Virus record (IMG/VR): IMGVR_UViG_3300021185_001174
Coordinates: 1-64,000 of that record
Source of the DNA: a virus
Reading direction: 5' to 3' (one strand)
DNA: 64,000 nt
The position numbers and the translations under genes were made by a program. Below the pieces are notes generated by a model, which saw nothing but the letters and a program-made list of their open reading frames with translations, did not search any database and was not told the origin of the DNA. Below, piece after piece: positions 29,195 through 37,103 of this stretch. Position 1 is the first letter of the stretch; every line of letters begins with the position of its first letter.

Positions 29195-29617
29195 TTAGTC
29201 TTTCGGCCAACACTTTTGGTAAAGTTCTGCCTCTAGTTTATAGGCTTCTTTTTCCCATGGAGCATTTTCATATTGATAGTTGCGAGGTTTCTTACCCTTC
29301 CATGACATACTATAACCACATAGTTCGCCACGTAAGTATTGTTTTGCATGAACCATTTCATGAGCAAGAGTTTGCATCATTGATTCGTGTGATAGTTTTT
29401 CTCCTAATGATTTTCGAGCGATGTGTATATCAACATAACCCTCGTTAGTATCACCCCAGCACAAACCTTCAGAGTCTGAATCTAAGGTAGTTTCAAAGTT
29501 AAGTATAATAACCTTGGACCATAATCGATTAATACCCAATTCTCTACAAAGCTTCTTAATGTAGATATCAATCTTTTTCTTTTGGGCCACTTGACCTCTT
29601 AAAACTAAAATTGGCAT
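29195..29617 (-). CDS. Zinc metallopeptidase-like protein (HExxH)
   Basis: TLAHEMVHAKQY..PWEKEAY; own early promoter. Confidence 0.75.
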   Translation of the reverse strand: MPILVLRGQVAQKKKIDIYIKKLCRELGINRLWSKVIILNFETTLDSDSEGLCWGDTNEGYVDIHIARKSLGEKLSHESMMQTLAHEMVHAKQYLRGELCGYSMSWKGKKPRNYQYENAPWEKEAYKLEAELYQKCWPKD

Positions 29618-29653: not shown

Positions 29654-29682
29654 ATTATACTACGCCTAAGACCGCTTGTAAA
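29654..29682 (-). promoter_or_regulatory. Sigma70-type early promoter
   Basis: TTTACA-17-TATAAT. Confidence 0.78.
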
Positions 29683-29711: not shown

Positions 29712-31556
29712 CTATAACTTAGGAGAATAAATGGTTATAAGTTCTTCCTTACCCTTTACGTTAATACTACCTATTTCTTTGCACTTATACTCTTCTGGCA
29801 ACTGGTCTTTTGTGAATGAGGAGATGATGGTTTTATATTCAAGCAACTCGTGTCTTGCTGCTTTAGCCTCGAGCCTTGCCGCGAGGTTGACTGCGTCTCC
29901 GATGACAGAGTAATCAAACCGAGACTCACTACCCATATTACCAACAATGCAATCGCCAGTATTGACGCCAGTTCCAACATTGATGGCGGGTAAACCCTGC
30001 TCGCTATATCGTCTTCTGAGTTCATCTGTTTTTATCTCTATCTCTATTGCTGATTTGACGGCCAGTTCTGCATGATTGGGACAATCTAATGGGGCGTTCC
30101 AGAAGGCCATAATACAATCGCCCATATACTTATCTATTGTTCCATTATTATTTAGTATAATTTTAGTCATTGCGTCTAAGAATTCATTAATAAGGATGAC
30201 CAAACCCTCTGGGTCGTTCTTGTTTTTATAGTGTTCTGATATAGGAGTAAACCCTACAATGTCCATGAATAGGAAGCTCATCTCTTTTCTCTCACCCCCT
30301 AAAGTTAATAGTGATGGGTCTTTCTGTAACATATAAACCATATCAGGCGAAAGATAAGTTCCAAATTGTTTCTTAATTTGTTGTCTTAACATAAACTGTT
30401 TATAGAAGTTATTAAAACTTGATGAGGTAAAGAGTAGTATAAATAAAACTGCAGGATAACTAACATCTAGGAGAATATACCATTCAGTCCAGGCATAATA
30501 AACGGCGGCTCCATAACCGAACAGCACGACTGAGAAGATTGCAGCACCATAATAAATTGATAGATAGTAGACTGCCAGAACAAGACCAAGAGAACCAAGA
30601 ACCATTAATACTAGTTCGAGCCATGGTGCCCATATCGGACGAGATATCGAATCCTGGTTCACAATCGTTTGCATGGCGGCCGCTTGTAGATGATGTGCCG
30701 ACTTTAAGCCCTGAGGAGTTGGTATCTGAGACGCAAGGCCCTTCGCCGTTAGGCCCACAAGAACAGTACGACCTTGAAGATTCGGTAACTCATTGGACCC
30801 GTAGTTTATTTCCTTAAACTTATAATTAGGATTAATCCATATAGAACCATTAGAGTCAGTTGATAATATAAATGGTCTTAATATAATTTGTTCAATACCA
30901 GTTTCATTTACCTTTATAGTATAGGATTGTTTTTGGCCTATTACTCTTACAGCCTCTAGTGCAAATGATGGATATAACTCTTTATTAATTTGTGATATTA
31001 ATGGGATTCTTCTTACTAGTCCATCAACTTCTGGCATACCATTTACAAGTCCGTGTCCCCACGCTCCCTGTTCTAGTTCTGGTAGATTAGTGATTAGGCC
31101 ATTATATTTTATAGCCCACTCTAGCGGGTCTCCTGTACCGAATATAGCTGAACCCACATAAGGGGCTTTCGATGACTTACCAGAGTTATCTGCATCTTGT
31201 GCAAGTATAATACCATTGTCTTTTATCCATGAAGCAAATACTTCATCACCACCAAATCTATCAACTTCAGGAAACATAATTGTGAAACCAATCATACCTG
31301 CATTTGCATTTCTTAAATCAGAAATCATCTGTGCATATGTTGACCTAGGGAATGGGTACTGACCTAATTCAGCCAGAGTTTCTTCCGATATGTTTAGTAA
31401 TATTATTTCTTTTGATTCGGTCTCTTCTATAGAACCAATGAATGAATCGAATGTATTTAATCTAAACTGCTGTACTAGTCCTGGGTCCAGAACTCTTAAA
31501 GTTATTAAAAGAATTCCTAGACCTATAGTAGTCCATATGGAAGTTAGGTATTTCAT
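29712..31556 (-). CDS. CHASE2-domain class III adenylate cyclase (membrane sensor cyclase)
   Basis: CHASE2 motifs (LGQYPFPRSTYA, DRFGGDEVFA, EVDGLVRRIPL), three TM helices, cyclase core FMDIVGFT / DKYMGDCIMAFW / GVNTG / DYSVIGDAVNLAARLE. Confidence 0.93.
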   Translation of the reverse strand: MKYLTSIWTTIGLGILLITLRVLDPGLVQQFRLNTFDSFIGSIEETESKEIILLNISEETLAELGQYPFPRSTYAQMISDLRNANAGMIGFTIMFPEVDRFGGDEVFASWIKDNGIILAQDADNSGKSSKAPYVGSAIFGTGDPLEWAIKYNGLITNLPELEQGAWGHGLVNGMPEVDGLVRRIPLISQINKELYPSFALEAVRVIGQKQSYTIKVNETGIEQIILRPFILSTDSNGSIWINPNYKFKEINYGSNELPNLQGRTVLVGLTAKGLASQIPTPQGLKSAHHLQAAAMQTIVNQDSISRPIWAPWLELVLMVLGSLGLVLAVYYLSIYYGAAIFSVVLFGYGAAVYYAWTEWYILLDVSYPAVLFILLFTSSSFNNFYKQFMLRQQIKKQFGTYLSPDMVYMLQKDPSLLTLGGERKEMSFLFMDIVGFTPISEHYKNKNDPEGLVILINEFLDAMTKIILNNNGTIDKYMGDCIMAFWNAPLDCPNHAELAVKSAIEIEIKTDELRRRYSEQGLPAINVGTGVNTGDCIVGNMGSESRFDYSVIGDAVNLAARLEAKAARHELLEYKTIISSFTKDQLPEEYKCKEIGSINVKGKEELITIYSPKL

Positions 31557-31636
31557 ATGTATATATCTATGTATATTCCACGGCCGCCATTAGGAGTTCC
31601 ATACTTATAACGAAGATATCGGCCATAGTTTTTCAT
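31553..31636 (-). CDS. 27-aa micro-ORF coupled to both neighbours
   Basis: MKNYGRYLRYKYGTPNGGRGIYIDIYI*; its start overlaps the upstream stop (TGATG) and its stop overlaps the cyclase start (ATGA). Confidence 0.55.
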   Translation of the reverse strand: MKNYGRYLRYKYGTPNGGRGIYIDIYI

Positions 31637-32397
31637 CAGTCTTGTGTTACAGATACAGCACAACCACCTACTGTAATGCAGTTTTGAGTTAGAGTATATG
31701 TTTGGTTTGTGGTACTCATTTGTTTTAAGATTAAATCTGTTCCGTATAAACCGTCAATTGTTATGTTTGCATTGTGACTTGCATTGTTACCTTTTTGTCG
31801 GACAAATACATCATTATAATCATTATAGATTGTTAGGTTTAAGTTCTTATCACCATCGCTCTGTTGTTTAACCTGAACCTTATTACCATCTCCAGCCAAA
31901 TGTAAATCAAAGCTATGACCTGTAGTAGACCCTTGGTTGGTTTGTTGGACTGCCATATCATTATTATCACCATAAAGAGTAATATCTACCTCATGGCCTC
32001 CTCCTTCATAACCATCAGCCCACCAAGTTAAATCTGTATCAGAATCAAGAGTATTCCATGCAACACCTTGGGCAACTTTCATTTGATTACTAGTACCACT
32101 TACTTCATCAAAGATTATTTTATTAATGCCGTCACTATCATTAACTTGTACTAAATACATTGATAAGCTTGATGCATTAATATATGAACCACTATCTTTC
32201 ATTTCAATTCTATTATTATATCCTATCTGGTCAATACCTAACTGTAAATTATTACCCGACTGCTCGATACTAATAACATTGTCATCGGCATTTGCAATTA
32301 GTGGTAATAAAAGACCGGCCAATATAATAATAGGCCAAAACAGTATACTTATCCATATTAAAGCTTTCATTGAGTATTCTTCTATCTTATCTAGCAT
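31636..32397 (-). CDS. Secreted curlin-like repeat protein (CsgA/CsgB-like)
   Basis: Signal peptide ending ANA; repeats ISIEQSGNN, IDQIGYNN, LYGDNNDMAVQQ, LAGDGNKVQVKQ, VRQKGNN. Confidence 0.65.
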   Translation of the reverse strand: MLDKIEEYSMKALIWISILFWPIIILAGLLLPLIANADDNVISIEQSGNNLQLGIDQIGYNNRIEMKDSGSYINASSLSMYLVQVNDSDGINKIIFDEVSGTSNQMKVAQGVAWNTLDSDTDLTWWADGYEGGGHEVDITLYGDNNDMAVQQTNQGSTTGHSFDLHLAGDGNKVQVKQQSDGDKNLNLTIYNDYNDVFVRQKGNNASHNANITIDGLYGTDLILKQMSTTNQTYTLTQNCITVGGCAVSVTQD

Positions 32398-32398
32398 T

Positions 32399-33511
32399 TT
32401 AATTCACCTGATTTATATATATGAGGATGTCTTCACTATCGTTACCTGTTATTACTCCATTCCATGTTGGTGTAATAGTATCTAGTGTAAAGTTACCACC
32501 CGCCGCTAATTTTATTCTTATAATTCCATTTACGTTTCTATATAGTACTAAACTACCATCTTGCAAAAATACATTATATTGGGATTCATCATTAAATCCT
32601 CTTGCGGCTCCTTTGATATCAAACTCGCCTAATGTATCGAATAAGTCTTTTGAATCTAAAATATCCAATACGTCAATTAAATATTCAACATCCAATTCAT
32701 CTATATCCAATTCAGTAAAATCTAAATCCGTTTCTTCTTCTAGTGCATCTTTCTCTAATTCATCAAACTCTAAAAAGTCTATATCTAAAAAACCTTTATC
32801 ATCATTCTGTTCATCTGCCAATTCTTCCTGAATCTGGTCTTTCACTTCCTGTGGGGGTGAAACGATAAACATATTATCAATGGACGCTGGTGTGATTCCA
32901 TTTATTTTAACTGGCCTTGTTGGTGCGCTATCTAAAGTACTCACCATTGTTGCTTGATAAACTTCGGTTAGAGTTACTACTCCACCTAAATTTTCTACCT
33001 CTATTTCACCCGATGGGTCACCATTCTCATCAGGTAATAATATAATTAAAGACCTTCCTAACTCATCTACTGTTGTGGTAAAGTCCGTACCTCTTATAGC
33101 AATGGATGCCGTAGGGGTAGATATATCAATATTAGCCTTATTAACCAAACCTAATCTACCCGAAGCAAACCTGGCTGTACCCATTGTGAACTTCATTGTC
33201 ATTTTGGAAAGGGATGGGTCAGCATCATAATATACTTCGTCAATTAAGACTTCGGTGTGTTCTTTTAGAGATAACTGAGCCTTATCTAAAAACTCAATTA
33301 ACATCTTACCCTTACCAGTTTCGGCAACGTCATTTAGTTGCACAGGTATATTATTTAATACCTTTATCTCTTCATTATTTCTTAGTATTTGCCCAACACC
33401 TATGGACTCTACAATACTCCCAATATCATCATCCGCAAAGGAATTTGATACCAGAAGTAATGTACTAAGAATCGCCGTTTGTATCTTGCTGATTAATTTG
33501 TATTGTTGCAT
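32399..33511 (-). CDS. FecR-domain periplasmic protein with an acidic C-terminal region
   Basis: Signal peptide; FecR core (ETGKGKMLIEFLD..LKEHTEVLIDE..GTARFASG..TPTASIAIRGTDF). Confidence 0.88.
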   Translation of the reverse strand: MQQYKLISKIQTAILSTLLLVSNSFADDDIGSIVESIGVGQILRNNEEIKVLNNIPVQLNDVAETGKGKMLIEFLDKAQLSLKEHTEVLIDEVYYDADPSLSKMTMKFTMGTARFASGRLGLVNKANIDISTPTASIAIRGTDFTTTVDELGRSLIILLPDENGDPSGEIEVENLGGVVTLTEVYQATMVSTLDSAPTRPVKINGITPASIDNMFIVSPPQEVKDQIQEELADEQNDDKGFLDIDFLEFDELEKDALEEETDLDFTELDIDELDVEYLIDVLDILDSKDLFDTLGEFDIKGAARGFNDESQYNVFLQDGSLVLYRNVNGIIRIKLAAGGNFTLDTITPTWNGVITGNDSEDILIYINQVN

Positions 33512-34205
33512 TGTCTGATGTTATATCTAAATTAATTACTGCATTAGGTGAAACACAAGCAACACCTGCTCCAGTGGCACATGTACCACTAATTTGATTA
33601 ATATCAATATCTGCACTATCGCCAACTAATTCAACGACCATTGATTGAGCTCCATCATTCTGCAATGTATTAATGTTATTACTATCTCCAGTAATATCAA
33701 AAGTCCATGTAGAATCATCTGCTTCAAAGTCTAGGTCGAATATATTAGAGCTACCAATTAAAATTAAATCCGCATCTAATCTTTCAGCACTATATACATA
33801 ACCTTGGTCTAAATCAAATGTATTACTATCTCCAGTAATATCAAAGTTATAATCTGAATCGTCCGAACTACCGACATAGCCGATATTCCAGTCCACCTCG
33901 TTTGAATCTCCCAGTAATGAGAACGTCAAAGAAGATGAATCTAAGTCCAAAGGACCATAAATTAAATTCTGATTTCCGACCATATCAATATCAAATGTTA
34001 ATGATGAACCAACGATAGTCATATCAGAACCAGATGATGAAAAATCATCTAATCCAATTTTGTTACCGTATCCGATTTGGTCAATATATAGAGTTAAAGT
34101 GTCACCACTTTGTTCTATCATAATCTCATTATCATCTGATGCTTGTGCAAAAAGAGAAGGAGTCAACAACAAGCTTAAACTTAAACTAATTAATGTTTTC
34201 TTCAT
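33465..34205 (-). CDS. Secreted curlin-like repeat protein (CsgA/CsgB-like)
   Basis: Signal peptide ending LFA; repeats IEQSGDT, IDQIGYGN, LLGDSN, ITGDSN, LIGSSN, ITGDSN, LVGDSA. Confidence 0.65.
   Translation of the reverse strand: MKKTLISLSLSLLLTPSLFAQASDDNEIMIEQSGDTLTLYIDQIGYGNKIGLDDFSSSGSDMTIVGSSLTFDIDMVGNQNLIYGPLDLDSSSLTFSLLGDSNEVDWNIGYVGSSDDSDYNFDITGDSNTFDLDQGYVYSAERLDADLILIGSSNIFDLDFEADDSTWTFDITGDSNNINTLQNDGAQSMVVELVGDSADIDINQISGTCATGAGVACVSPNAVINLDITSDNATIQINQQDTNGDS
33677..33845. repeat. Exact 25-bp direct repeat, copies 144 bp apart, inside the curlin-like gene
   Basis: tattactatctccagtaatatcaaa at 33677-33701 and 33821-33845; both encode FDITGDSN. Confidence 0.85.
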
Positions 34206-35151
34206 TTTTCTTTTCCTCTATTGAGTGCCTTTCGTTTTTCCCATCATGTTGATGAGGATGTCTATGGCCCTCGGTTAAATTCCAGAACTTACGGTCATGA
34301 CCCTGGTATATTAATTCAAGTACTCCTGCCTCTATGGCTGCTCGTACCGCATATGTCACACTCTCATTATTTCCCACTCCGTCCTCGTATTCAATTAGTT
34401 GTGTACCCTGTTCATAGAACCTGAATACATCACCACTTGAACCATAAGAAAGAACCGACTTCTTACTTTGGACGTTTAATAAAACTTCACCAGTTAAGAC
34501 TGAAACTGCTCTAATTGCAACAGTTACTACATCTTTCCTATACATTCTACTATAACCAATACCAAGTGTCCTTGCGCCTCGACCACCTGTTTCAGTATTT
34601 GTATCATAACCAATAATGCCACCTTCAATAATTATTCCAGCGAATAAAAGTGGACCCAATTCCTTTGCAGTGTTTCCTTGGCTCTTGGCCATGTCTTGTC
34701 TGCCGCTACGGATAATCTGTCTTTCTCTTACTAGATTATCAATACCTTGTCTTTCTGCTACTCTAAACCATGTACCGCCACCTGCAGTCTTAAGAGCATC
34801 TATTAACATTTCAGTACCGCCTTGGGTAACTGCAGTAGAGAATGAAGCTATGTTATCTACTGATTTTCTTTGTCCAGTTAAATCTTTAAATGAATAAACT
34901 GCAACAACTGGTCTATCTTTTGCTGGTGGTAAATTTAATAAATCTACAAATGCAGGTAACTTAACAGCTGTAGGATGGTCAACACATATATACTTACGAG
35001 ACTTAAATTGATTCCATAAGTATGGTTCATCATCAGCACATTTCTGTGGGTCTTTCGACCACTGCGGTATAGAAGCACAACCACTTAAAAATAAAATAGA
35101 TATTAATAAAAGTCTAACCATCATCTGGGTCCTGACTAAAATTACCAGCAC
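34186..35151 (-). CDS. csgG: Curli secretion channel lipoprotein CsgG (probable start about 35121)
   Basis: Lipobox FLSGC; VAVYSFKDLTGQRK, FSTAVTQGG, WFRVAERQGIDNLVRERQIIRS, GGIIGYDTN, NESVTYAVRAAIEAGV. Confidence 0.93.
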   Translation of the reverse strand: MLVILVRTQMMVRLLLISILFLSGCASIPQWSKDPQKCADDEPYLWNQFKSRKYICVDHPTAVKLPAFVDLLNLPPAKDRPVVAVYSFKDLTGQRKSVDNIASFSTAVTQGGTEMLIDALKTAGGGTWFRVAERQGIDNLVRERQIIRSGRQDMAKSQGNTAKELGPLLFAGIIIEGGIIGYDTNTETGGRGARTLGIGYSRMYRKDVVTVAIRAVSVLTGEVLLNVQSKKSVLSYGSSGDVFRFYEQGTQLIEYEDGVGNNESVTYAVRAAIEAGVLELIYQGHDRKFWNLTEGHRHPHQHDGKNERHSIEEKKNEENIN

Positions 35152-35626
35152 CTACTGGTATTTCTATGATAGTTTCGGAACCATCTTCTGTTATAATTGT
35201 CATTCTTATTACTTCTGAACCATCAGCATTAGTAATAACTTCGTATGTTACTGTAGAACCTTCTAATACAAATGAACCAAATCTAACAGAATCATCATTA
35301 CTAAACATTGATTCTACTAGTTGTTTTGCCATCTGTGCATATATTCTACTCTCTAAGTTCCTAATAAACTTGGCCAATACACTATTATCTTCTTCTCTTT
35401 CTGCGGCTCTTCTTGCGGCTTCTAAAGCATCTTCTATTGCTTTCTTTCTAGTATGTTCAATATTATCTATGGTAAGATAATGGTTACCAGTACCAACTCC
35501 ACTAAAGGATGGATTTTTAAACCCAAATTTTATTTCATCTGCCAATACTGGATATGATACTATAAATAATACCATAAGTAAAAGCACAATATTTCTAATC
35601 TTCATCATTATTTTCTTTCGCCTCAT
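35114..35626 (-). CDS. csgF: Curli assembly protein CsgF-like
   Basis: Signal peptide, then EIKFGFKNPSFSG; FIRNLESRIYAQMAKQLVESMF; adjacent to csgG. Confidence 0.82.
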   Translation of the reverse strand: MRRKKIMMKIRNIVLLLMVLFIVSYPVLADEIKFGFKNPSFSGVGTGNHYLTIDNIEHTRKKAIEDALEAARRAAEREEDNSVLAKFIRNLESRIYAQMAKQLVESMFSNDDSVRFGSFVLEGSTVTYEVITNADGSEVIRMTIITEDGSETIIEIPVGAGNFSQDPDDG

Positions 35627-35867
35627 TAATAACTTGTTGTCTAGCTCTATATTCTAAAACTACATCAACTTTTTGTTGTAACCTAATTAAATCTTGGTCC
35701 AACATTCTTGTCTGGTCTATAACTCTTATAAGAGCTATATGCATTTCATCTAACTTTGGTTCTATATGTGTATTAATAAATGACCAAACATAGTAAATAA
35801 AATAACCCATCCCAACTGCCATCACAACAGGGAAACCATATTCAGATATTAACTGAGCAATATCCAT
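35595..35867 (-). CDS. Small single-TM protein with coiled coil (YvrJ/holin-like)
   Basis: LISEYGFPVVMAVGMGYFIYYVW followed by an amphipathic helix. Confidence 0.65.
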   Translation of the reverse strand: MDIAQLISEYGFPVVMAVGMGYFIYYVWSFINTHIEPKLDEMHIALIRVIDQTRMLDQDLIRLQQKVDVVLEYRARQQVINEAKENNDED

Positions 35868-36163
35868 TAGTCTCTCCTAGTATCTAGCTTTCCATCTTCT
35901 ATAAAGTTTTCTGCCCTAGCTATTCTAGTAGTATCTGGTCTTAAATCTAACGCTGACGATACCAATAAATCTATTTTAATCATTTCATTACTCATTGTTC
36001 TACATCTATTCTCCAATGAATTAGCAAATATTGTTAGTGTAGTAATCTTATCTACTATACCTTCCATTATTTGTTTTATTACAATAAAGATAAATACTCC
36101 CATTACAAGAGAGCCTGCAATAGGTGCACCAACGTCCGCAATAAGTTTAAATACGTCTTCCAT
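35867..36163 (-). CDS. Small single-TM protein with coiled coil
   Basis: LIADVGAPIAGSLVMGVFIFIVI; first gene after the late promoter at 36169. Confidence 0.65.
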   Translation of the reverse strand: MEDVFKLIADVGAPIAGSLVMGVFIFIVIKQIMEGIVDKITTLTIFANSLENRCRTMSNEMIKIDLLVSSALDLRPDTTRIARAENFIEDGKLDTRRD

Positions 36164-36168
36164 GTATC

Positions 36169-36176
36169 TATTTATA
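36169..36176 (-). promoter_or_regulatory. T4-type late promoter heading the csg/FecR/cyclase operon
   Basis: Intergenic TATAAATA 5 nt before the ATG at 36163. Confidence 0.68.
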
Positions 36177-36229: not shown

Positions 36230-36493
36230 TTAGTGAGTTTGTGCTAGTTTAACAGCCTTTACACCAGTAATACTATTAGCTACTTCAAGAGTTTCTGTAA
36301 TAGCCTTTCGAATATTTACAACTTCTCCAGTATTAACTGTTACTGAGCCTACTGTATTTGAACCTTCTTTAATGGTTACCAACTGTGCAGCGGCATTAGT
36401 GTTAAGGACTCTAACAAGTGAAGCACGTGATACATTAGAAGCAGTATTACTTAGTGCTACTTCTACTGCCTTTACTTTAATTGTCTCGGCCAT
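36230..36493 (-). CDS. Small beta-rich hypothetical protein (possibly virion)
   Basis: SD AGGAG; Ala/Val/Thr-rich. Confidence 0.7.
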   Translation of the reverse strand: MAETIKVKAVEVALSNTASNVSRASLVRVLNTNAAAQLVTIKEGSNTVGSVTVNTGEVVNIRKAITETLEVANSITGVKAVKLAQTH

Positions 36494-36635: not shown

Positions 36636-37103
36636 TTAAAGGGCCTCTAGCCTTTTCATAAGTCTTTCGGCTCGTTTCGTTACCTGTTTGTGCCATCTTG
36701 AATCTCTGCCTTCTACAGCAGCCTCCTTCCAATCACCACACTGCAGCGCTGCATTGTGCTTTCTAAATTTACTTAAGCGCGTAAGTCCCATATTAAACAT
36801 CATATTTGCCACTATTTGTTTTACTTCTTCTGGATATCCATCCCATCCTTCATGTAATGTTTTACAGTCAGCGATGACAGTCTGTACATCTTTCTCAAAG
36901 CAATCAACTGTTCGTTCTTCTGATACTGGAGTTCCAACAGGTTGCCCAAACTCTGGGTCTGTTTCGAGGACCAAGTGTCCAATTCCGAAAGTTGGGTAGC
37001 CCAGATGGTCTTTATAAATCTCGTTAACCTTACCTTCATCAAATGTCAATTGCTCCCTTAACTGGTCAATATCAATATCTTTATTTTTTCTTCCGAATAA
37101 CAT
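36636..37103 (-). CDS. e: Endolysin, T4-type lysozyme (GH24)
   Basis: LTFDEGKVNEIYKDHLGYPTFGIGHL (Glu-Asp-Thr triad), NMMFNMG, DSRWHKQVTKRAERL. Confidence 0.92.
   Translation of the reverse strand: MLFGRKNKDIDIDQLREQLTFDEGKVNEIYKDHLGYPTFGIGHLVLETDPEFGQPVGTPVSEERTVDCFEKDVQTVIADCKTLHEGWDGYPEEVKQIVANMMFNMGLTRLSKFRKHNAALQCGDWKEAAVEGRDSRWHKQVTKRAERLMKRLEAL

Follow-up and report, generated by a model that had tools for sequence, protein, structure and literature searches.

A curli-type secretion module with a FecR-domain protein and a CHASE2 adenylate cyclase in an uncultured pelagimyophage

What use could a lytic phage have for an operon that joins a curli-type channel, curlin-like proteins, and a receptor adenylate cyclase? 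The question is raised by the first 64,000 nucleotides (hereafter, the window) of the IMG/VR viral record IMGVR_UViG_3300021185_001174, the whole of which is 120.8 kb long. The window contains T4-type baseplate genes and a ribonucleotide reductase, and Pelagibacter phage HTVC008M is the sole cultured phage related to it at the DNA level; it comes from an uncultured pelagimyophage of the HTVC008M/Melnitz type, a phage of SAR11-type bacteria. The operon runs on the minus strand from 36176 to 29712, on which all of the coordinates given below lie, in the order tm1, tm2, csgF, csgG, cur1, fecR, cur2, a 27-codon open reading frame (ORF), and the gene for a cyclase with a CHASE2 domain.

The reading that we favour, with a probability of about 55%, is a composite one: a CsgG-CsgF channel made late in infection would export fibre-forming curlin-like subunits, and a FecR/CHASE2 pair would set the synthesis of cyclic AMP (cAMP). 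If a phage does equip the infected cell with secretion machinery, the subunits of fibres, and an enzyme for a second messenger at this stage, cell surfaces, aggregation, and carbon flow could change at large scale.

Conservation of the module and earlier descriptions

The gene list and the tight arrangement of the operon, which had been proposed in a first interpretation of the sequence (the original prediction), were confirmed by ORF calls and Pfam searches. The genes abut or overlap throughout, the start of fecR overlapping the end of cur1 by 47 nt, and the sole gap, of 79 nt, separates cur2 from the cyclase gene. Related loci were then collected by a scan of viral contigs seeded with the cyclase, which gave at least 599 matching stretches, the best 80 of which (47–94% identity) were examined. 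Among these 80 loci, all those that extend 5 kb or more upstream of the cyclase have the order tm1-tm2-csgF-csgG-cur1-fecR-(cur2)-cyclase, and this order is kept even where the cyclases are only 47% identical; HTVC008M and Melnitz have it too. The linkage of the cyclase and FecR genes to csgFG, on which the original prediction had staked its case, therefore holds in every related viral contig with that much upstream sequence.

The small ORF at 31553–31636 fares differently. It fills the 79-nt gap exactly, since its start overlaps the cur2 stop (TGATG) and its stop overlaps the cyclase start (ATGA), and it had been counted as a 27-aa peptide belonging to the operon. Outside the window, it was detected only in L005 and L019, both of them near relatives, so the idea of a conserved gene was rejected; its overlaps suggest that it is probably a device for translational coupling rather than a gene for a peptide.

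No family match to CsgE or CsgC was found in the phage record or in HTVC008M in searches in which E. coli was the positive control (CsgD was not searched for), which agrees with the absence of csgE and csgC noted in the original prediction. That prediction had also treated the coupling of the pore to a FecR protein and a cyclase as new, and this part did not survive a look at the literature. Zaragoza-Solas et al. (2020) described clustered curli genes of pelagimyophages, for which they suggested a role in uptake or in “sibling capture” (PMC7029224). Buchholz et al. (2022) then modelled the CsgGF pore of Melnitz and proposed a role in lysis (PMC9004378). Finally, the full module, namely, HK, CsgF, CsgG, CsgA/B, FecR, a second CsgA/B, and adenylate cyclase, was the subject of Wittmers et al. 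(2022), who reported its presence in both podo- and myoviruses, its global distribution, and its alphaproteobacterial affinities (PMC9599517). The coupling is annotated, gene for gene and in the same order, in the GenBank record of Methylophilales phage Melnitz. The module has thus been known since 2022, and the window is one more member of it. CHASE2 is not named in these three papers (0 occurrences), and what the present analysis adds is the naming of this sensor, the bacterial precedents for its pairing with FecR, the lack of support for a published kinase label, the conservation of the promoter, a solenoid model, and the scarcity of cNMP-binding receptors in the sampled host genomes.

The secretion channel, its putative substrates, and their expression

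The csgG product (34186–35124; PF03783, E 5e-54) is an outer-membrane lipoprotein channel that aligns with the structures of E. coli CsgG at E 3e-46. Its ORF reaches back to a GTG at 35151, and the true start is probably the ATG at 35124, to judge from the position of the lipobox, LSGC, which aligns with that of E. coli CsgG. Two features of the phage protein have no equivalent in E. coli CsgG: an insert of 40 residues, Cys among them, behind the lipobox, and a C-terminal tail rich in His (HRHPHQH). CsgF (35114–35626) has a signal peptide and matches PF10614 at E 1.2e-12 (48.6 bits for a cut-off of 25.8), and its N-terminal segment, FGFKNPSFSG, is conserved.

The candidate substrates are two. 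The first, cur1 (33465–34205), encodes a very acidic protein of 246 aa with a signal peptide and around eight strand-turn-strand repeats; the second, cur2 (31636–32397), encodes a curlin-like protein of 253 aa that has the N-terminal repeat IEQSG..L.L.IDQIGY.N in common with cur1. It is the more variable of the two and is missing in the most divergent relatives (L074–L082). An AlphaFold2 model of the cur1 product is all-beta, with strand-turn-strand repeats (pLDDT 80, pTM 0.75). In a VIA structural search covering 48,161 representative chains, its top match was Pontibacter CsgA (8C50_A; Z 17.2, root-mean-square deviation (rmsd) 9.3 over 197 residues), followed by generic beta-helices at Z 12–15. 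A Foldseek search of the PDB gave no match to the model at E ≤ 0.001. When the cur1 profile was compared with the PDB, the best match was again 8C50 (E 0.004), and E. coli CsgA came next (E 0.031). The original prediction depended on a beta-solenoid fold for this protein; a solenoid is what the model has, and its best match, in structure as in profile, is a solved curli subunit. As modelled, cur1 would be a secreted, curlin-like beta-solenoid.

When would these proteins be made? A late-promoter-like motif of the T4 type, TATAAATA, lies at 36169–36176, and only 5 nt, without a Shine–Dalgarno sequence, separate it from the first ATG of the operon. The motif as such is no more frequent in the window than expected by chance (18 copies for 14.8 expected); however, 8 of the 18 copies precede a gene start on their own strand by no more than 75 nt, a zone that makes up 4.1% of strand positions (binomial p 2e-7), and baseplate genes are among those so preceded. 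Moreover, of 40 related loci, 29 have the motif within 60 nt upstream of the tm1 ATG, and for 22 of these its position is exactly −13. In a more distant clade, it is found at −29 to −33 and is followed by GGAG, as in a normal leader. The late-type promoter of the original prediction is supported by a motif that is kept in position among relatives and enriched before gene starts. T4 late promoters put this octamer around −10. Together with the 5-nt spacing, this suggests that the late mRNA of the operon would be leaderless or nearly leaderless.

An 87-aa conserved protein (phrog_19805) is encoded between the endolysin gene and the operon, at 36230–36493; in some relatives, its gene directly abuts tm1, which then lacks a preceding TATAAATA. 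The region shows no enrichment of sigma-70-like promoters (34 against an expectation of 35.7), and no convincing terminator was found after the cyclase gene. A near-consensus sigma-70 site, TTTACA-17-TATAAT, occurs at 29682–29654, right after the cyclase stop, and probably starts the gene for an SprT-like zinc metallopeptidase located at 29195–29617. The strength of this site suggests that the SprT-like gene is a separate unit; in around 35 related loci, such a gene follows the cyclase at a variable distance.

Expression of the module in metatranscriptomes has been reported (PMC9599517). Four marine RNA libraries hold contigs that match the present operon exactly over tm1/tm2, csgF, csgG, cur1, and fecR; such contigs indicate presence in RNA libraries rather than levels, the ranking of genes, or the ends of transcripts.

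The FecR-domain protein and the CHASE2 cyclase

The FecR-domain protein (32399–33511; PF04773, E 7e-7) is periplasmic and consists of a signal peptide, a FecR-type beta domain, an acidic disordered linker, and a small C-terminal beta domain. Residues 58–213 of its model match the cell-surface-signalling domain of PupR (6OVK_R) with a Z of 15.8 and an rmsd of 2.4 over 134 residues. Is it then an anti-sigma factor? The approximately 30 residues that precede the FecR domain correspond to a cleavable signal peptide (SNSFA/DDD); neither an N-terminal cytoplasmic anti-sigma domain nor a transmembrane (TM) helix was found, and there is no room for such a domain. Since only a signal peptide comes before the domain, the protein is a secreted FecR-domain protein and not an anti-sigma factor. 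Pfam searches of the operon, to which they were confined, revealed neither an ECF sigma factor nor a TonB-dependent transducer.

Two further ideas about this protein were rejected. Its C-terminal domain ends in a curlin-like I-x-I-x-Q motif, and profile–profile comparison gave a probability of 0.6% that it is a curlin repeat. A Foldseek match to the anchoring domain of MpIBP (5ix9) involved the N-terminal part (Z 6.8) and not the C-terminal domain, and was uninformative. In metagenomes, the protein has thousands of close relatives, and phage relatives saturate the matches. A Pelagibacteraceae single-cell genome (L110:7971–9518) encodes a FecR-domain protein whose N-terminal domain is 29% identical and which has no CHASE2 cyclase in its vicinity, and an Alphaproteobacteria metagenome-assembled genome (MAG; L092:7006–9817) has a FecR gene between two curlin-like ones, with neither csgG nor a CHASE2 cyclase for about 7 kb in each direction.

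The last gene of the operon (29712–31556) encodes a receptor adenylate cyclase (CHASE2, E 2.5e-36; Guanylate_cyc, E 3.8e-19). A TM segment is followed by a periplasmic CHASE2 domain (PF05226, residues 16–324), three TM segments, and a class III cyclase domain, the hydrophobic segments being at the N-terminus and at about residues 308–380. Its best solved relative is CyaB of P. aeruginosa (3R5G, E 1.2e-31). In the alignment of the two, the motifs FMDIVGFT, DKYMGD, DYSVIGD, and VNLAARLE are in place, and both metal-binding Asp residues, the substrate Lys, and the transition-state Asn and Arg are kept; at the second specificity position, the phage enzyme has Ser where CyaB has Thr. The enzyme hence looks catalytically competent, and the alignment upholds the original prediction that its catalytic residues are intact.

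The grouping of these two proteins has precedents in bacteria. When bacterial genomes were scanned with FecR alone as the seed, a CHASE2-cyclase gene was found beside the FecR gene in around 20 loci without csgFG, and the adjacency of FecR and a CHASE2 cyclase is a recurrent bacterial pairing. Two contigs from Caulobacteraceae MAGs (L084:5113–11133 and L085) go further and have, between housekeeping genes, the series csgF-csgG-cur-cur-fecR-cyclase without tm1/tm2; a gene for a calcineurin-like phosphoesterase is located just upstream. These clusters qualify the published statement that bacterial operons encoding type VIII secretion systems (T8SS) lack FecR and the cyclase. However, they do not establish a bacterial origin for the whole module: their GC content is lower than that of their flanks, the cluster was present in only 1 of 151 sampled genomes of the family, and, in a quick, midpoint-rooted tree, the Caulobacteraceae cyclase nests among contigs carrying tm1/tm2. 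The same tree puts every T8SS-linked cyclase in a single clade, from which the plain FecR-CHASE2 cyclases are separate (SH-aLRT 100).

Low-GC contigs with the phage-type module and tm1/tm2 (L083, L086–L095, G011:C1, and G050:C11) have also been binned in MAGs of several taxa, labelled Flavobacteriaceae, Luteolibacter, Legionellales, Rhodobacteraceae, Pirellulales, Bacteroidetes, and Pelagibacteraceae. The probable explanation is that contigs of phages were mis-binned or were caught in infected cells.

Competing readings and known systems

According to the composite reading, late in infection, the Sec pathway would take the proteins of the module to the cell envelope, in a host without type VIII secretion of its own. 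There, CsgG and CsgF would form the outer-membrane channel, through which the curlin-like subunits would be exported so as to polymerise into surface fibres. The FecR-domain protein and CHASE2 would constitute a periplasmic sensor pair, as in the bacterial FecR-CHASE2 gene pairs, and an envelope- or fibre-related cue acting on this pair would set the activity of the cyclase.

Several observations weigh against this reading. The constriction of CsgG is only partially conserved with respect to E. coli (F56 is kept, N55 is replaced by Ser, and Y51 by Val), and both cur1 and cur2 score 18.7 bits with Curlin_rpt, below the cut-off of 20.7 bits. The contact between FecR and CHASE2 is deduced from gene neighbourhood only. 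The cyclase gene is thinly covered by the contigs from the RNA libraries, which can prove neither transcription nor its timing. Cells infected with Melnitz were not seen to clump by Buchholz et al. (PMC9004378). Lastly, the cNMP_binding domain, the one kind of cAMP receptor looked for, turned up in just 3 of the 81 Pelagibacteraceae genomes sampled, and the 6 phage genomes searched, the complete one of HTVC008M among them, had none.

This last result weakens the output through cAMP and CRP that the original prediction had envisaged, as such a read-out lacks a receptor in the searched phages and in most of the sampled hosts. A class III cyclase domain was present in 2 of the same 81 genomes, both times on a short contig bearing the phage-type module, including tm1/tm2, so no class III cyclase owned by the host was seen among them (other classes of adenylate cyclase were not searched for). 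Similarly, CsgG was found in 3 of the 81 genomes, and at least two of these occurrences are on contigs carrying the phage-type module. The question is thereby sharpened: which molecule reads cAMP, given that no receptor is visible in most of the sampled hosts or in the searched phages? Of the signalling device first predicted, there remain the conserved unit, the late-type promoter, a competent-looking cyclase, and a curlin-like protein modelled as a solenoid; its novelty does not, and its cAMP/CRP output is weakened. The sensing of superinfection and the control of lysis timing by the module are speculation, and aggregation through it is unproven. Aggregation or “sibling capture”, the masking of the surface against superinfection, and lysis timing are all candidate pay-offs.

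Lysis timing is also the basis of the main rival to the composite reading. CsgG-CsgF would then be a gated outer-membrane pore, tm1 and tm2 would act like holin and antiholin, and the FecR/CHASE2 cyclase would time the breach of the envelope in an analogue of T4 lysis inhibition, with the curlin-like proteins as plugs or accessory parts rather than fibres. We regard this as unlikely. Of the two small, bitopic membrane proteins, tm1 (35867–36163; 98 aa) has one N-terminal TM segment, at about residues 7–38 by hydropathy, and a helical C-terminal part, and tm2 (35595–35867; 90 aa) is its paralog (28% identity, E 1e-8). Both match phrog_18771, a family of unknown function (E 2e-22 for tm1 and 3e-25 for tm2), and tm1 precedes csgF in all of the complete related loci. 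A holin-like nature is hinted at by a weak match of tm2 to the holin family phrog_4898 (1.3e-4) and by the nearest named Atlas clusters, YvrJ (0.88) and Holin_BhlA (0.85), which are leads only; these similarities fall short of any reliable threshold. The published label of tm1/tm2, histidine kinase (“HK”), receives no support either: neither HisKA or HATPase_c nor any other kinase family was found in them with Pfam, even at E 0.1, and on this sequence evidence, the label should be dropped.

The neighbourhood can likewise be read in two ways. A T4-lysozyme-like endolysin is encoded at 36636–37103, two genes upstream of the operon, and in most relatives it is likewise close to the module: in around 30 related loci it is located about 1–2 kb upstream of tm1; in several other relatives, however, it lies about 4 kb downstream of the cyclase. 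No match to Phage_holin_T was found in five genomes of the phage group, but the search had no positive control. The late-type promoter would suit a lysis function, and such a role was proposed by Buchholz et al. (PMC9004378). Nevertheless, tm1/tm2 move with the module into podoviruses (PMC9599517), which suggests that their role is specific to the module, and two conserved solenoids of the curlin type are hard to account for as plugs.

Less likely still is an import channel, as proposed in PMC7029224 and PMC9599517, in which a CsgG pore left ungated by the absence of CsgE would admit nutrients, cofactors, or iron complexes to the periplasm, and FecR/CHASE2 would report their arrival. The system after which the FecR domain is named is indeed a signalling chain for iron citrate. 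The phage protein, however, has no anti-sigma part and no TonB-dependent transducer as a partner in the operon, and where bacterial FecR domains neighbour CHASE2 sensors, the loci seen show no link to iron genes. Moreover, import would leave both the conserved CsgF and the curlin-like substrates unexplained. A comparably small chance is given to a self-contained circuit that would carry information from the envelope to the cytoplasm as cAMP in a host without cAMP signalling of its own: FecR/CHASE2 would read the state of the pore or fibre, or contact with cells or phages, and cAMP would act on a phage-encoded reader, possibly the holin-like tm1/tm2, so as to time lysis. The least probable reading, in which the cyclase does not signal to the host at all but drains ATP, makes a nucleotide that interferes with defence, or releases cAMP outside through the pore, would fit the lack of CRP-type receptors in the searched phages and in most of the sampled hosts, and that of a host-owned class III cyclase, yet that receptor search was confined to the cNMP_binding type, the receptor-type architecture with its CHASE2 domain and conserved FecR partner points to regulated signalling, and CyaB, to which the enzyme is closest among solved structures, is a bona fide adenylate cyclase under regulation.

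How does the module, taken as the composite reading would have it, compare with known systems? With T4 lysis inhibition, where the RI antiholin senses the periplasm, there is at most a functional analogy, that of a late envelope-sensing function; there is no homology, and no match to the T holin family was found. The FecR/CHASE2 part has closer counterparts. In Burkholderia and Pseudomonas, a LysM-FecR protein and a CHASE2 histidine kinase are encoded in an operon linked to biofilm formation (PMC5192318). As in the phage, one operon supplies both a FecR-domain protein of the periplasm and its partner, a membrane sensor with CHASE2, but signals leave this system through a histidine kinase and a response regulator instead of a cyclase, and the FecR protein carries LysM.

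The S. meliloti system resembles that of the phage in that the gene for a CHASE2 class III cyclase is next to one for a secreted FecR-domain protein. CyaD1 adjoins the FecR-domain protein SMc02177 and SMc02178, and deletion of its CHASE2 domain results in constitutive cAMP (PMC5498481), while the outer-membrane protein NsrA acts upstream of the CHASE2 cyclases (PMC7529298). CHASE2 thus restrains the cyclase, and an outer-membrane protein is placed upstream of it. The relationship is one of architecture and neighbourhood and not of close sequence identity; furthermore, S. meliloti reads cAMP through the CRP-like Clr and has no curli genes in this system, whereas no such receptor was found in that of the phage.

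The secretion part is most like the curli system of the alphaproteobacterial type (csgF, csgG, and csgA/B, without csgC, csgD, or csgE), which likewise has a CsgG lipoprotein and CsgF. Its secreted proteins have strand-turn-strand repeats of the Q-x-G-x-x-N type, for which cur1 and cur2 are the candidate counterparts in the phage, and neither system has CsgE or CsgC. The curlin-like proteins of the phage are unusually acidic compared to those of bacterial curli. Unlike the latter, the phage module belongs to a lytic phage whose host lacks the system, as the CsgG counts above indicate, and its operon joins to the curli genes both the FecR/CHASE2 cyclase pair and the small membrane proteins tm1 and tm2. 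The closest counterpart is the published T8SS module of pelagiphages. The published papers call the 90–98-aa proteins histidine kinases, which is unsupported here, and the cyclase of the window shares 44% identity with its HTVC008M counterpart and 34% with the one in Melnitz; the genes, their order, and the phage group (Kyanoviridae-type pelagimyophages) are the same, and nothing essential differs.

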